DNA of 5,193 nucleotides from a virus (taxonomy: Duplodnaviria; Heunggongvirae; Uroviricota; Caudoviricetes), in the IMG/VR virus record IMGVR_UViG_2548876868_000016. One strand, 5' to 3'. The notes under the pieces are model-generated. The model saw nothing but the letters and a program-made list of their open reading frames with translations, was not told the origin of the DNA and did not search any database. Made by a program: the position numbers and the translations under genes. Shown piece after piece: positions 1-5,003 of the stretch. How positions within the stretch are numbered: the stretch's first letter is position 1; every line of letters begins with the position of its first letter.

Positions 1-392
1 CCGCAATAGCTGCAATGTCTTTCGCGCATCAGCCTGCGCATTCACCACAACGCTGATAGCATTGCCGGTGTCCGAATCGAACGGACCTTTTCCCTGCCCA
101 ACCCTCCCATCTGAATGGGACTGTCTGGAATTGAACCAGCACTTATGCCTTGCTCGTCAATGCTCTCATCGTTGCGTCCTGGTCTCTTCCCAGGCGTCAA
201 ACCGAATCGCCACGCTGGTTAGGCGTCTTATCAGCATCCTCATTGACTTGCACATTCCGGCTACCTGGTTTGTTTGCCCGAGCAAGGAGTGGATTGTCCC
301 CTTTAACGTCCCCAGACCGCTAACGACGCATGTGCCATACGCCGTGTTACAACCAACCTTTCGTTAACAACAGTCTGTTGTTTGTTCAGATA

Positions 393-434
393 ATGATGCT
401 ACTAAAAGTAGCAAAAATCAACAACAAAAAGTAG
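393..434 (-). promoter_or_regulatory. PL/OL-like leftward promoter with two operator-like sites
   Basis: Read on the minus strand: -35 TTGATT (plus 416-421), 17-nt spacer, -10 CATCAT (plus 393-398). The spacer holds an inverted repeat GCTACT-aaa-AGTAGC (398-412) matching the 13-bp motif CTAYTWWWAGTAG at 399-411; a degenerate second copy (11/13) lies at 422-434, 23 bp away. The 23-nt spacer-plus-(-10) element is 21/23 identical to the one beside the cro-like gene (2792-2814). Function inferred by analogy to lambda OL/PL. Confidence 0.4.
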
Positions 435-647
435 AAGTGTGTATTTAATTTTTAGTTTTCTATATAACGTTATGAATTAAAAGGTTTTTCACAGATGGGG
501 TGATGTGGCGTAGTTACGTATAGAAAATATCGAGTGTCTTTTGTTTTGGTTTAATTATTAGGTTAATTAGATAGTAATAATTTGGGGGAAAATAGTGGGA
601 ACTATGGATACAACGGGTCAGGAACAGTGTTATTAAGCAGGCTACGA

Positions 648-673
648 GTATAAAACCCGACCGGTTGGTCGGG
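648..673 (-). terminator. Rho-independent terminator downstream of the ParA-like gene
   Basis: On the minus strand a 7-bp GC-rich stem CCCGACC/GGTCGGG (plus 656-662 and 667-673) with a 4-nt loop is followed by TTTTAT (complement of plus 650-655). It lies 37 nt downstream of the stop codon at 710-712. There is no T-tract on the plus-strand side. Confidence 0.6.
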
Positions 674-709
674 CGAGAATTATGTTCGTTCTAAATCATG
701 GTTATTGTA

Positions 710-1795
710 TTACAGACACTTGACTACTGTTGAAACATCAGATTCTAGTGCTTCAATTTGTGCTCTATTAGCTTGGGTCGCCATACCATAGATAGTGTAA
801 CTCTTATGCTGCAGCCTACTTAAAGGGCATCCCTCATGGTTTATTATTGCTGCAAGAGTATTACCATCTTTGACATTTTGAACTCTCTCGAAAGTAGCCA
901 CATTTGTGAACAGATGAGGATGTGTATTTAACAGGTCATCCGTGATTCTTTTGATCTCTTCTGCATGTGATTTGAATGCTTTTGCTGCATCACTTTCATT
1001 AGTTCTTGAGCGGTTTTGTACGAAAAGGTGTAGTTCAGGTAGTTCGATAAGGTTTTGCTTTGCTTCTTTGTTGAAATCTAAGAACATTTCATCTTGTTCT
1101 GACTTGTCAATAGACACTCCATAAATAAGTTTAACAAGGTTTTTTATTCCGCGAATTGATGCAGCATCGGCAGTGCAAGGGATAATTATTCTATTTGCCG
1201 CGACTACTCCCAATTCTGTGTAGCTGGCAAAACTTGGATTACAATCAATAAAAAATGTTTTTGCTCTGTCAGAAATGTTTTTATCGGCTTCAAAAGATGC
1301 TATTAGATCTACCAGCAAAGATCGGCTTTTCTTCCATGCTTCTTTTACTGGGGATGAGCCAATGTGAGATATTAAGCGTGAACAGATATCAAGATCGACA
1401 TCACCAGGAAGAATATATAAGTTCTCTGGCATTTTTGCATTAACATCATGGGCTCGTACAAAGTAAGAAGATTCATTTCCTAAACGAGACAAAGGAGATT
1501 TGCTAAAACGCTCCTTGATATAACCTGCGATTGTAACATTTCTGTCTCGCAATTTATTTAGATTTTCTTCCCCGGTACCATTGCCACCAAGAATAATTTC
1601 TGAAACGTTTGATTGAGGGCATGAGTCAATAACCACAACATCTTGATCCGGATGAGATATAGCAAACTCAACGGCAAGATTATATGTAAGAAAAGTTTTT
1701 CCTACACCACCTTTGTTGTTCCATACTAAATATTTTGTATTGGTGGAAATCATATCTGCTACCCCATCTGTCGCTTCAGTACGTTCATTAATCAT
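710..1795 (-). CDS. ParA/MinD-family P-loop ATPase (deviant Walker A), orphan; candidate lysogen-expressed accessory gene
   Basis: 361-aa ORF with ATG at 1795-1793 and SD AGGAT 7 nt upstream. Deviant Walker A KGGVGKT at residues 28-34, switch-like IDSCPQSN, Walker B-like FFIDCNPS and the IIIPCTAD motif typical of ParA/Soj. About 100 aa of C-terminal extension beyond a minimal ParA core. No ParB-like gene or parS-like array in the window. Co-oriented with and downstream of the cI-like gene, and terminated by the hairpin at 648-673. Confidence 0.85.
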   Translation of the reverse strand: MINERTEATDGVADMISTNTKYLVWNNKGGVGKTFLTYNLAVEFAISHPDQDVVVIDSCPQSNVSEIILGGNGTGEENLNKLRDRNVTIAGYIKERFSKSPLSRLGNESSYFVRAHDVNAKMPENLYILPGDVDLDICSRLISHIGSSPVKEAWKKSRSLLVDLIASFEADKNISDRAKTFFIDCNPSFASYTELGVVAANRIIIPCTADAASIRGIKNLVKLIYGVSIDKSEQDEMFLDFNKEAKQNLIELPELHLFVQNRSRTNESDAAKAFKSHAEEIKRITDDLLNTHPHLFTNVATFERVQNVKDGNTLAAIINHEGCPLSRLQHKSYTIYGMATQANRAQIEALESDVSTVVKCL

Positions 1796-2770: not shown

Positions 2771-2840
2771 TTCTATTTTAAGTAGTTGCAATTTGCTATT
2801 TTAAGTAGCATCATCCCTCTGAATTTCAGAGGAGAAAGGT
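2771..2840. promoter_or_regulatory. OR-like divergent promoter/operator region (PRM and PR analogues)
   Basis: Two identical 13-bp sites CTATTTTAAGTAG at 2773-2785 and 2796-2808, start-to-start 23 bp. Candidate rightward promoter: -35 TTGCAA 2786-2791, 17-nt spacer, -10 CATCAT 2809-2814. Candidate leftward -10 TAAAAT on the minus strand at 2780-2775, 4 nt upstream of the cI-like ATG, implying a leaderless or near-leaderless transcript. SD GGAG 2831-2834 for the cro-like gene. Confidence 0.55.
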
Positions 2841-3104
2841 ATGTCATCTCAAAACTACACAGAGAAAGCAGTAAAGGCTGCGGGAAAGTCTTTATCTGAA
2901 GTAGCCCGTCGCTTTGGTTTTAAGTCCACTCAATCCGTCGCCAATTGGGTAATTAACAATCAAGTCCCGTCAGAACGGGTTTTACAACTTTGTGAGTTGG
3001 GAAACTGGTCCGTGACCCCTCATGAACTGCGTCCTGATATTTACCCCAATCCAAATGATGGATTACCTGAGTGCTATTCAAAAGTTAGCGGTTCAACTGC
3101 GTAA
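2841..3104 (+). CDS. Cro/YdaS-like small HTH transcriptional regulator
   Basis: 87-aa ORF, ATG 2841 with SD GGAG 6 nt upstream. HTH-like segment SLSEVARRFGFKSTQSVANWV; C-terminal HELRPD motif that I recall as typical of Cro/YdaS-type phage regulators. Divergent from the cI-like gene across an operator-bearing spacer. Confidence 0.8.
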   Translation: MSSQNYTEKAVKAAGKSLSEVARRFGFKSTQSVANWVINNQVPSERVLQLCELGNWSVTPHELRPDIYPNPNDGLPECYSKVSGSTA

Positions 3105-3132: not shown

Positions 3133-3717
3133 GTGGGTAAAGAACCTGAATGGAAAGTTGATAAGCAACCAGCATGGCTGGTGGCAGCAATACGAAGAAC
3201 GATTGCTGATTTACCTCATGGCTATGAGGAAGCAGCGGAAATTCTTGGTTTGTATAAATCTGATGATATCACCCCAGCGAAAGATCAATTGCATAACAGA
3301 CTGCGTAGCGGTGGGGATCAAATTTTTCCACTTGAGTGGGCCATGGTTTTACAGGATGCCAGTGGTACCAGGCATGTAACGGATGCGATAGCGCGTCGTA
3401 GTAATGGGGTGTTTGTGCCGCTGGTGGACATTGATGACATTGACAATGGTGACATTAATCAGCGGCTGATGGAGTCAATAGAATGGATTGGCAAGCATTC
3501 CCAGTACTTACGCAAGGCAACTGCTGATGGAGTTATTGACCAGGCTGAGCGTGAGCAAATCGAAGAGAACAGCTACCAAGTAATGGCGAAGTGGCAGGAG
3601 CATTTAACACTGTTATTTCGTGTTTTTTGTGCGCCGGAAAAGAGTAACGCCCGCGAGTGTGCAGCTCCGGGCGTCGTGGCGTCGATTGCTTCTGGTTGTG
3701 GAGAAACTAACGCATGA
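3133..3717 (+). CDS. CII-like / YdaT-like phage regulatory protein (family assignment tentative)
   Basis: 194-aa ORF, GTG start 3133 with SD GAGGA (3121-3125) 7 nt upstream. Sits directly after the cro-like gene, the slot of cII in lambdoid phages and of ydaT in Rac-type prophages. Stop codon overlaps the next start (ATGA at 3714-3717). Family not verifiable without an HMM search. Confidence 0.7.
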
Positions 3718-4072
3718 ACAGTTTAACAACACACTACCGTCGCTCGCAACTGATTGCGCTTCCTGTACCGGGTGGAAAAGCGAAGGTGGAGTATTGCTAT
3801 GCGGTGAATGTACCAGGTGACAGGGAAATTGTAACCCACAGCTTTGCAGAGTGGGCTGTGGGTGATTTCAACCGGCAGAAGGAGACAGTCCTTTGCAACA
3901 AGTTAACCGCTGGTTCAAAGATCACTACGGAGTGCCCGTCAGAGTCATTCGTTGGGAACCGGAAACACAACGGGTTATCTACCTCCGCGAAGGCTATGAG
4001 CATGAGTGCTTCAGCCCGCTCGAACAGTTTCGTCGTAAATTCAGGGAAATAGAGGTCGGTCATGAGCACTAA
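3714..4072 (+). CDS. Small phage protein of unknown function with a coding-frame switch (frameshifted gene or two overlapping ORFs)
   Basis: ATG 3714 is translationally coupled to the upstream gene (ATGA), with SD GGAG 3700-3703. The frame of ATG 3714 looks protein-like for ~60 codons ([60 protein letters not shown]) but then gives a Ser-rich low-complexity tail to the stop at 4050-4052. The -1 frame is open from 3866 to the stop at 4070-4072 and encodes a convincing sequence ([59 protein letters not shown]). A TTG at 3893-3895 is preceded by AAGGAGA (3879-3885) at 7-nt spacing. The span 3714-4072 is 359 nt, consistent with a 1-nt deletion at the T-run 3892-3894. Confidence 0.5.
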
Positions 4073-5003
4073 ATTAACCGGCTATGTATGGGATGGTTGC
4101 GCTGCGTCAGGCATGAAGTTATCCAGCGTGGCAATTATGGCCCGCCTGGCTGATTTCAGTAATGACGAAGGTGTGTGCTGGCCATCAATTGAAACCATTG
4201 CCCGCCAGATTGGCGCGGGGATGAGCACCGTCAGAACGGCTATCGCACGGCTGGAAGCAGAAGGCTGGTTAACGCGTAAGGCGCGTCGCCAGGGTAACCG
4301 CAATGCGTCGAATGTTTATCAGCTTAACGTTGCGAAGCTTCAGGCAGCGGCATTTTCTCAACTGTCAGATTCTGACCCGTCAAAATCTGACGCATCAAAA
4401 TCTGACCAGTCAAAATTTGATGCGTCGAAATCTGGCAAAAAAGCGGGTTTTCACCCGTCAGAATCTGGCGGGGATCCGTCAGTAAAATCAAAACATGATC
4501 CGTCAGATAAAAAAACTTCTCGTCCGGACGCTTCGCAACCGGACACGCAGACGGCTGAACAGGAGTTTTTAACTCGCCATCCTGATGCGGTTGTATTCAG
4601 CCCTAAAAAGCGCCAGTGGGGAACGCAGGATGATTTGACCTGCGCACAGTGGCTCTGGAAAAAAATCATCGCCCTGTACGAGCAGGCCGCCGAATGTGAC
4701 GGCGAGGTGGTTCGTCCCAAAGAACCGAACTGGACAGCCTGGGCAAACGAAATTCGCCTTATGTGTGTGCAGGATGGTCGTACTCACAAACAAATCTGCG
4801 AGATGTACAGCCGCGTCAGCCGCGATCCGTTCTGGTGCCGTAACGTGCTCAGCCCGTCGAAGCTGCGGGAAAAATGGGATGAGCTTTCCCTGCGCTTATC
4901 GCCGTCCGTCAGCACGTACACCGAAAAACGCGAAGACCCGTACTTCAAATCCAGTTACGACAACGTGGACTACAGCCAGATCCCGGCAGGATTCAGGGGG
5001 TGA
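4062..5003 (+). CDS. Replication initiator (lambda O-like; N-terminal winged-helix DNA-binding domain) with internal ori iterons
   Basis: 313-aa ORF, ATG 4062 with SD GAGGT (4052-4056) 5 nt upstream. N-terminal segment GVCWPSIETIARQIGAGMSTVRTAIARLEAEGWL resembles the HTH/winged-helix module of phage replication initiators. Iteron array inside the coding sequence encodes a low-complexity linker (SDSDPSKSDASKSDQSKFDASKSGKK). Gene order cro-cII-O matches lambdoid replication modules. Confidence 0.85.
   Translation: MSTKLTGYVWDGCAASGMKLSSVAIMARLADFSNDEGVCWPSIETIARQIGAGMSTVRTAIARLEAEGWLTRKARRQGNRNASNVYQLNVAKLQAAAFSQLSDSDPSKSDASKSDQSKFDASKSGKKAGFHPSESGGDPSVKSKHDPSDKKTSRPDASQPDTQTAEQEFLTRHPDAVVFSPKKRQWGTQDDLTCAQWLWKKIIALYEQAAECDGEVVRPKEPNWTAWANEIRLMCVQDGRTHKQICEMYSRVSRDPFWCRNVLSPSKLREKWDELSLRLSPSVSTYTEKREDPYFKSSYDNVDYSQIPAGFRG
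4365..4516. repeat. ori-like iteron array: five regular 15-bp-spaced iterons plus degenerate copies and an A-rich tract
   Basis: 12-bp cores at 4365 (TCAGATTCTGAC), 4380 (TCAAAATCTGAC), 4395 (TCAAAATCTGAC), 4410 (TCAAAATTTGAT) and 4425 (TCGAAATCTGGC), exactly 15 bp apart; each core is a partial palindrome of form TCAGA-w-TCTGA. Additional copies at 4458 (TCAGAATCTGGC) and, more degenerate, 4479 and 4503. A-rich tract GATAAAAAAAC at 4506-4516. Architecture parallels the lambda ori inside the O gene. Confidence 0.7.

Follow-up and report, generated by a model that had tools for sequence, protein, structure and literature searches.

Mirror-image cassettes flanking a cI-like repressor gene are the probable OL and OR operator-promoter sets of a lambda-like Escherichia coli prophage

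Results

Paired dyads on both sides of the repressor gene

The DNA analysed here, called the window throughout, is a stretch of 5,193 nucleotides from the virus record IMGVR_UViG_2548876868_000016 (Caudoviricetes). Its central gene, on the minus strand at 2030-2734, encodes a cI-like repressor of 234 amino acids, in which analysis of open reading frames and Pfam identifies an N-terminal helix-turn-helix (HTH) domain (HTH_3, E=1.7e-5) and a C-terminal LexA-type Peptidase_S24 domain (E=1.9e-16). Facing it on the plus strand, across 106 bp, is a divergent cro-like gene of 87 amino acids (2841-3104; YdaS in Pfam, E=4.6e-11, of the YdaS/Cro HTH family), the first gene of the predicted PR operon. 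The repressor gene is flanked by two mirror-image cassettes of short dyads and promoter-like hexamers, which are the subject of this work. We believe, with considerable confidence, that the window is the immunity region of a lambda-like Escherichia coli prophage of the e14/SfII/SfIV type, bearing yfdP-yfdQ-yfdR, in which the cassettes would be the left and right operator-promoter sets (OL and OR).

An earlier note on this DNA, made from the sequence alone, described a 23-nt element at 393-415 on the minus strand and at 2792-2814 on the plus strand, each preceded by a -35-like hexamer. Direct reading of the sequence bears this out: positions 393-415, reverse-complemented, read TTTGCTACTTTTAGTAGCATCAT and positions 2792-2814 read TTTGCTATTTTAAGTAGCATCAT, agreeing at 21 of 23 positions, and the hexamers TTGATT (421-416, minus strand) and TTGCAA (2786-2791, plus strand) lie directly upstream. 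The match grows to an inverted repeat of 47 nt (393-439 against 2768-2814, 79% complementary), the longest in the window. Within it, the 13-bp motif CTAYTWWWAGTAG is exact at 399-411, 2773-2785 and 2796-2808. Two copies of this motif had been claimed for each side, which is right for the right-hand cassette, where both are exact, and too generous for the left, where the copy at 422-434 (CAACAAAAAGTAG, reverse complement CTACTTTTTGTTG) has two mismatches to the motif as it was first written; the start-to-start spacing of 23 bp is exact on both sides. The core of the dyad is CTAC-N5-GTAG and its half-site is about T(G/T)CTACTT. On the left, OL1 (399-411) is a perfect dyad, CTACTAAAAGTAG, that extends as TGCTAC...GTAGCA over 397-413, and OL2 (422-434), which reads CTACTTTTTGTTG on the minus strand, is a weaker dyad with one degenerate half-site. 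On the right, OR2 (2773-2785) and OR1 (2796-2808) both read CTATTTTAAGTAG, and OR1 extends as TGCTA...TAGCA over 2794-2810.

These sites are far more frequent than chance would predict. When up to two mismatches were allowed, the window gave 12 strand-hits against 1.05 expected, a count that none of 200 dinucleotide-preserving shuffles reached. The identical prophage of an O157 genome was searched over 49.9 kb, where CTAY-N5-GTAG occurs only at OL1, OR1, OR2 and a third right-hand site, OR3, that we describe below (6 strand-hits against 0.88 expected; 0 of 100 shuffles reach 6). Many equally good copies scattered at random through the genome, which the earlier note had named as grounds for giving up its claim, are therefore absent. 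When two mismatches were allowed over the same 49.9 kb, three more sites appeared: OL2, one that overlaps the cI stop codon, and an unrelated one. The site over the stop codon (CTAATTAAAGTCG, 2026-2038) was treated as chance, since it is present only in the window and its identical copy and is missing from the cI stop of the other alleles scanned.

Conservation of the cassettes in related loci

We compared the window with loci whose repressor carries the same HTH domain. Twelve of these, termed group A, come from E. coli (5 alleles, four of them further to that of the window), Citrobacter freundii, Citrobacter koseri, a Gibbsiella-type locus, metagenomes and Rouxiella; the CI proteins of the C. 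freundii, C. koseri, Gibbsiella-type and metagenome loci are 70-84% identical to that of the window. OR1, OR2, OR3, OL2 and OL1 are all present in 12/12 of these loci and their spacings are constant, with 23 bp between OR1 and OR2 (22 in the two Citrobacter loci), 45 bp between OR2 and OR3, and 23 bp between OL2 and OL1, while beyond the cassettes the loci have unrelated DNA and the distance from OL1 to OR1 runs from 867 to 2911 bp. OL1 is CTAC-N5-GTAG throughout. OL2 is kept as CTACTTTTTGT(T/A)G in every locus, for which reason we consider it a real, if weaker, site. Over 44 unique sites, C1, A3, G10, T11 and G13 never vary, and the centre is rich in A/T. The same selective retention is seen in 133 further E. 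coli genomes that carry a second cI allele (~92% identical): of window positions 367-709 they keep only 390-435, that is, the OL cassette.

OR2 begins with CTAT and OL2 with CTAC, each in all 12 loci. This suggests a further constraint on OR2, which might be that its affinity is tuned or that it shares bases with a promoter element.

The same dyads in the same layout were found in the Providencia phage PSTCR8lys, the Aggregatibacter phage Aaphi23 and the Acinetobacter phage AbTJ, whose CI N-terminal domains are 48-54% identical to that of the window; in these phages OR1 and OR2 are 23-24 bp apart and the OL cluster lies downstream of cI. Together with group A, 15/15 loci with this HTH domain (48-100% identical), from Escherichia, Citrobacter, a Gibbsiella-type locus, Rouxiella, Providencia, Aggregatibacter and Acinetobacter, carry dyads on both sides of cI. 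Their OL-OR distances range from 0.84 to 2.9 kb, so that the separation of about 2.4 kb given in the earlier note is no conserved property of the system.

Dyads follow the DNA-binding domain of the repressor

One and the same CI C-terminal domain occurs with at least four unrelated N-terminal HTH domains, and this provides a natural specificity swap. A scan of one genome per species for the related C-terminal domain yielded 22 loci, of which 21 were searched for the motif over about 10 kb each. In 20 of the 21, which have another HTH, no match with one mismatch or fewer was found. The exception was Rouxiella silvae, whose CI is only 38% identical in the C-terminal domain and 60% identical in the N-terminal domain, with SYEMARRYT conserved; there the motif is present, as OR1/OR2 and OL2/OL1 pairs 867 bp apart. 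Many of the other HTH groups have mirror cassettes of their own, built from TTAACC..GGTTAA, ATAAC-N4-GTTAT or AATAGC-type dyads. The Cro-like protein is inherited together with the dyads as well (64-99% identical over the 12 loci, with FKS(T/V)QSVANW conserved). Comparison thus points to an operator sequence that is specific to the immunity type and changes with the DNA-binding domain of the repressor, and it is mainly because the motif follows the HTH through this swap that we accept the operator reading ahead of biochemistry. The CI family that shares one C-terminal domain is, moreover, a ready-made set of natural specificity swaps.

Predicted PL, PR and PRM promoters

Stacking the 24 cassettes of group A revealed a single order: O2, a TTGnnn hexamer, a 17-bp spacer ending in O1, and a -10 hexamer that reads (C/T)AT(C/T)AT in the OR cassettes and nAnnnT in the OL cassettes. 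All 24 cassettes keep TTG in the -35 hexamer and, in the -10 hexamer, A at position 2 and T at position 6, and the length of the spacer does not change. In the window, predicted PR comprises the -35 hexamer TTGCAA (2786-2791, plus strand; TTG invariant in 12/12 OR cassettes) and the -10 hexamer CATCAT (2809-2814, plus strand; (C/T)AT(C/T)AT in 12/12 loci), with a start near G2821. Predicted PL comprises TTGATT (416-421, minus strand; TTG invariant in 12/12 OL cassettes) and, 17 bp away, CATCAT (393-398, minus strand; A2 and T6 kept in 12/12 OL cassettes), with a start near A386. OR1 and OL1 would accordingly sit within the PR and PL spacers with their centres at about -19; OL2 abuts the PL -35, and OR2 the PR -35.

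The promoter for the repressor gene itself, PRM, had no place in the earlier note. We place it on the minus strand between OR2 and the cI start, with a -35 hexamer ATGACT at 2765-2770, 2 bp from OR2 and within an AAATGAC that is invariant in 12/12 loci, and a -10 hexamer TAATCT at 2742-2747, which reads TAA(T/C)CT in 12/12 loci and ends 7 nt before the cI ATG. OR2 would then lie between the PR and PRM -35 hexamers, its centre about -42 from PR and about -45 from the PRM start. The 17 bp between the PRM hexamers (2748-2764) are highly variable in sequence and fixed in length among the 12 loci, and the same geometry recurs with better hexamers elsewhere: CTGACA-17-GATATT-6-ATG in another group of loci, group D, TTGAAT-17-TATCTT in Aaphi23 and TTGGTG-17-TAAAAT in AbTJ. 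Because of these conserved blocks, the fixed spacer and the recurrence of the geometry in other groups and phages, we consider it likely that PRM lies at 2770-2742 and gives a leaderless or nearly leaderless cI mRNA.

Two further elements stand close to the promoters. An inverted repeat, CCTCT-N7-AGAGG (2816-2832), separates the PR -10 from the ribosome-binding site of cro; its arms are invariant and its loop is variable in 11 of the 12 related loci, and it is missing from Rouxiella and the Providencia phage. With a PR start near 2821 its left arm would go untranscribed, and the repeat could then serve another factor as a site on the DNA instead of forming a hairpin in RNA. On the other side, at about 465-480, the minus strand reads AATTCATAACGTTA, an A/T-rich box like the integration host factor (IHF) consensus WATCAANNNNTTR, which is perfect (AATCAATTGGTTA) in one related locus (L004). 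Most related loci have such a box about 60-70 bp upstream of OL1 despite differing surroundings, and IHF may bind there, ahead of PL, as it does in lambda.

A probable third right-hand operator at the cI start

OR3, likewise absent from the earlier note, is a dyad at 2728-2740 (CTACCATAGGTAG), 45 bp from OR2, whose centre is the A of the cI ATG (2734), the predicted start of PRM transcription. This distance is the same in 12/12 group A loci and is 44-45 bp in the three distant phages. Furthermore, other groups have built a dyad at the same position from half-sites of their own: GAAC-ycATG-GTTC, encoding Val-Gln, in group B and TAAC-taATG-GTTA, encoding Val-Lys, in group D. The corresponding dyad of Aaphi23 and of AbTJ falls in non-coding DNA, a short way upstream of where cI is annotated to begin. 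From these comparisons we conclude that OR3 is a real operator, and most likely one that shuts PRM off at high repressor concentration, that is, by negative autoregulation. No conserved dyad was found beyond OL2 in the 12 loci, so OR3 is without an OL3 partner.

The position of OR3 depends on the start of cI. Two longer reading frames, from TTG 2791 (253 amino acids) and from ATG 2770 (246 amino acids, common in automatic gene calls), were rejected, given that the 12 extra codons are highly variable while the remaining protein is conserved, that group D has an in-frame stop two codons upstream of the equivalent ATG-GTT start, and that the RefSeq annotation uses a 234-amino-acid start identical to ours.

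Neighbouring genes, cargo and prophage context

Rightward of cro, the window encodes a CII-like YmfL/CP76 protein (3133-3717, plus strand), a DUF4222 protein and, at 4062-5003, an O-like initiator (open reading frames and Pfam). Within the O-like gene, 4350-4472 holds five to six 15-nt direct repeats (TCAAAATCTGAC-type) together with overlapping inverted repeats, probably the iterons of a replication origin, by analogy with lambda O.

The repressor carries a predicted self-cleavage machinery, comprising an Ala-Gly cleavage site and a Ser/Lys dyad: Ala104-Gly105, Ser149 (in GDSM) and Lys186 show no variation in an alignment of 17 sequences. A sequence search of the PDB with CI, with E up to 0.01, gave zero matches; the Cro-like protein matches a solved Cro, 3BD1 (E=1.9e-5). 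In the phage collection, no isolate with this immunity region was found: the C-terminal half of CI alone has matches there, at about 70% (e.g. HK639), and the closest match to its N-terminal domain is 54% identical.

The slot between cI and OL (435-2029), which is the position of rexAB in lambda, appears to be a variable cargo bay. In the window it holds a gene for a ParA-like P-loop ATPase (710-1795, minus strand; Pfam), followed by a terminator-like hairpin of 8 pairs, 6 of them G-C, and a T-run (655-674, minus strand). In relatives the cargo is ParA-like (three loci, including the window), HicA/HicB, HigB, HipA_2 with DUF3037, or small hypothetical proteins, and the slot is empty in Rouxiella and in PSTCR8lys. 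The ParA-like gene does lie between the cassettes, as had been noted, but it is interchangeable cargo and no part of the switch; since both OL-OR distance and cargo vary among loci, we regard the gene and the 2.4 kb alike as incidental. No ParB-like gene was found in the window among open reading frames or by Pfam, so that a ParABS partition locus is not what we see here. PADLOC gave the ParA-like protein a weak match to Drt5 only (E=0.007), and we made no assignment as a defence gene.

On the far side of OL, the predicted PL transcript would begin with a leader of about 670 nt (window 1-366 on the minus strand, then about 280 nt leftward to yfdP) in which no convincing open reading frame is apparent. 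It is 95-99% identical in many lambdoid phages of other immunity (Stx2a, Stx2c, mEp460, cdtI and others, Stx denoting Shiga toxin), and this homology breaks off at 366, which leaves 27 nt to the PL -10. We saw no N-like gene. As a candidate put-type antiterminator RNA, the leader (1-392, minus strand) was rejected, for it has no significant similarity to the putL-like RNA of HK639; its fold z-score is only -1.7. In Rfam, searched with the whole window at E up to 1, the sole match was a chance miRNA-like one inside the O-gene iterons, with none in the cassettes or leader. A homologous leader is labelled 'tRNA-Arg' in one phage record; a tRNA scan found zero.

The window is identical to prophages of 70 complete E. 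coli genomes. In the O157 strain FDAARGOS_293 (NZ_CP022050.2, 4227500-4277400), the exact immunity region lies within an Stx1a-converting prophage next to mlrA (yehV), with yfdP, yfdQ and yfdR on its left arm and a Q antiterminator. The terminase gene of that prophage is interrupted by a second integrase-bearing element.

Discussion

The equivalence of the two cassettes with OL/PL and OR/PR of lambda, proposed in the earlier note, is strongly supported by the sequence and its comparison, and the window has the features by which a lambdoid OL/OR immunity region is recognised at the level of sequence. The existence of the cassettes, their non-random occurrence, their conservation and geometry, and the tie between dyad and HTH domain are all established at the sequence and comparative level. 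Very probably, therefore, they represent the operator-promoter sets of a lambda-like CI/Cro switch, with dyads that are bound by the HTH domain of CI and probably recognised by the Cro-like protein too.

We propose the following model of regulation. 

The steps of this model rest on binding, promoter activity, start sites, cooperativity, looping and autoregulation that we infer from the layout described above. Two repressor dimers, one on O1 and one on the weaker O2 whose binding is aided by the first, would block RNA polymerase at both promoters. At PR this would silence rightward transcription of cro, the cII-like gene and the replication genes; at PL it would silence the leftward long leader and then yfdP, yfdQ and yfdR. 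PRM, between OR2 and the cI start, would begin the cI message at the AUG or 1 nt before it, and the hairpin at 655-674 would stop the leftward cI-cargo transcript ahead of OL. As repressor accumulated to high concentration, OR3, centred on the PRM start, would turn PRM off. Finally, SOS induction would proceed through RecA-stimulated self-cleavage at Ala104-Gly105 by the Ser149/Lys186 dyad.

Several observations weigh against this reading or parts of it. The consensus promoter scan called neither PR nor PL; their hexamers match at 4/6 positions each, 8/12 in total, and the threshold was 9. What the scan did find was a leftward TTAAAA-18-TAAAAT on the minus strand at 2804-2775, inside OR1 and OR2. 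We rejected this as PRM, as both of its hexamers fall within OR1 and OR2 and it would go off together with PR. OR2 lies about 3 bp farther from the PRM start than it does in lambda, which makes positive control of PRM uncertain. The right half of OR3 also codes for protein (Met-Val-Glu), which could explain part of its conservation, and conservation of this site is for that reason weak evidence on its own. The 12 and 20 loci on which the comparison rests are not phylogenetically independent. A full-text literature search for the operator strings returned irrelevant matches only and no paper with these sequences; we also found no operator studies of PSTCR8lys, Aaphi23 or AbTJ, and a search on the Aaphi23 operator gave nothing relevant. 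Looping, too, is not guaranteed, as there are only two OL sites here, like in phage 933W, which is without OL3 (PMC5977221).

We give an even chance, or slightly better, to tetramers at OL and OR being joined in a loop that encloses cI and the cargo, by analogy with the lambda, HK022 and phiKO2 repressors: all three, when tested in vivo, brought OL and OR together in a loop, and the natural distances concerned are 0.63-2.3 kb (PMC8053113). The paired sites and their identical phasing at both ends speak for looping. Mirror cassettes alone do not prove a loop, however, because the 933W repressor shows no cooperative OR1-OR2 binding and that phage has no OL3 (PMC5977221). It is quite possible, if a little short of an even chance, that the cassettes are genuine CI/Cro operators, that OL and OR act independently with no loop, and that OR3 is filled by its own affinity, as in 933W. 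The two OL sites, the unpartnered OR3 and an OL-OR distance that is free to vary between 0.84 and 2.9 kb would all fit such an arrangement. Set against it are the constant 23-bp phasing of O1 and O2 at both ends and the consistently weaker OL2 with its degenerate half-site, which argue for pairwise cooperativity; a variable distance, moreover, is compatible with looping, given the range over which the tested lambdoid repressors do so.

That the dyads serve another protein, either as centromere-like sites for the ParA-like ATPase or as sites for Cro only, we consider very improbable. The cassettes do bracket the ParA-like gene in the window, but in 9 of the 12 group A loci, and in each of the three distant phages, the dyads occur although the slot has no annotated ParA-like gene, and a ParB-like partner gene is missing. 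Because Cro is co-inherited with the dyads just as the CI HTH is, comparison alone cannot separate a CI target from a Cro target. Nevertheless, the sites overlap promoter hexamers and the cI start, as fits a repressor, and they track the CI HTH through the swap of its C-terminal domain; in known lambdoid switches, CI and Cro share operators. We consider it about as improbable that the inverted repeat of 47 nt plays no part in regulation and is a relic of structure, for instance the terminal inverted repeats that once bounded a mobile cassette, or a scar left by recombination where modules meet. Homology with other phages does end no more than some 30 bp from the outer side of OL (366; 390-435), so that the cassettes coincide with mosaic boundaries, but mosaic joints are expected at the edges of lambdoid immunity regions. 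There is no transposase between the repeats, the two phased dyads and the promoter hexamers are conserved while the remaining repeat varies, a third dyad stands at the cI start, and other immunity groups have the same layout with different dyads. Chance similarity in AT-rich intergenic DNA, to which the A/T character of the central 5 bp of the dyad might have inclined one, can be dismissed in view of the shuffles, the five invariant positions and the conservation of the sites across families of Gammaproteobacteria.

A broader picture can be drawn, though as a whole we think it rather unlikely: that phages of Enterobacterales, Pasteurellales and Moraxellales share a widespread and so far unstudied class of CI/Cro switch, with a loop between two OL and two OR sites and a cargo bay. 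In such a class, autoregulation would act through an operator centred where the leaderless cI mRNA and its AUG begin, in place of a lambda-style OR3 adjacent to OR2, and the interior of the loop would be a freely exchangeable bay, dedicated to cargo expressed in the lysogen (ParA-like, HicAB, HigB, HipA-like). If this were true, expression of the cargo would be tied to the state of the switch. Since the operator centred on the start codon co-varies with the HTH in at least three groups, it would be a general design rule of the repressor family.

The layout itself is textbook lambdoid and offers no new principle; its value is practical. For an immunity type of which we found no earlier characterisation, and which about 200 of 5,426 complete E. 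coli genomes carry, the analysis defines the operator sequence, the probable positions of PL, PR and PRM, and a third site, for autoregulation. In the resources that were searched, we found no description of this operator specificity or of an OR3 so placed. How readily Stx prophages are induced is believed to be set by the affinity of repressor for operator (PMC5977221). As the operator recurs in Providencia, Aggregatibacter and Acinetobacter phages, a single footprinting study would annotate many genomes. In addition, the natural domain swaps allow a clean assignment of specificity for this family of CI HTH domains, and the slot that separates cI from OL shows where toxin-antitoxin or defence-like cargo expressed in lysogens may be sought.

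The closest textbook parallel is lambda. Both have a leftward cI, encoding an HTH and a self-cleaving S24-type domain, that faces a rightward cro, and in both the dyads overlap the early promoters PR and PL: O1 is centred at about -19 here and O2 at about -42, against about -17 and -41 in lambda. The spacing of O1 and O2 is 23 bp here and 24 bp in lambda, the cI message from PRM is predicted to be leaderless, like that of lambda, and the cargo slot with its terminator occupies the position of rexAB and t_imm between cI and OL. The OL-OR distance of about 2.4 kb in the window is close to the 2.3 kb of lambda (PMC8053113). In contrast, the operator sequence is unrelated to that of lambda, being a CTAC-N5-GTAG dyad of 13-17 bp, and with two OL sites only, the strict pattern of three adjacent operators on each side is absent. 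OR3 stands at 45 bp from OR2 and is centred on both the PRM start and the cI AUG, whereas in lambda it is 23 bp away and over the PRM core promoter, and OR2 is shifted from the PRM start by the 3 bp or so mentioned above. A long non-coding PL leader is found where an N gene might be looked for, Cro is of the YdaS/HTH family, and CI has no significant match to solved structures.

In the number of its operators, the window resembles 933W and BAA2326, as the switch of these lambdoid Stx phages has three OR sites and two OL sites, with no OL3 (PMC5977221). The present immunity region, too, occurs in an Stx (Stx1a) prophage in one O157 genome; the repressor, the operator sequence and the placement of OR3 differ from those of 933W. 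The short OL-OR distances of HK022 and phiKO2/N15, about 0.63-0.7 kb (PMC8053113), are similar to the 0.84-0.87 kb of the Providencia and Rouxiella relatives; again, the repressors and operators are different, and the loop demonstrated there with the loopometer is, for our system, a proposal. The relatives PSTCR8lys, Aaphi23 and AbTJ differ from the window in their hosts, in their C-terminal domains and in their neighbouring genes, and carry the same dyads.

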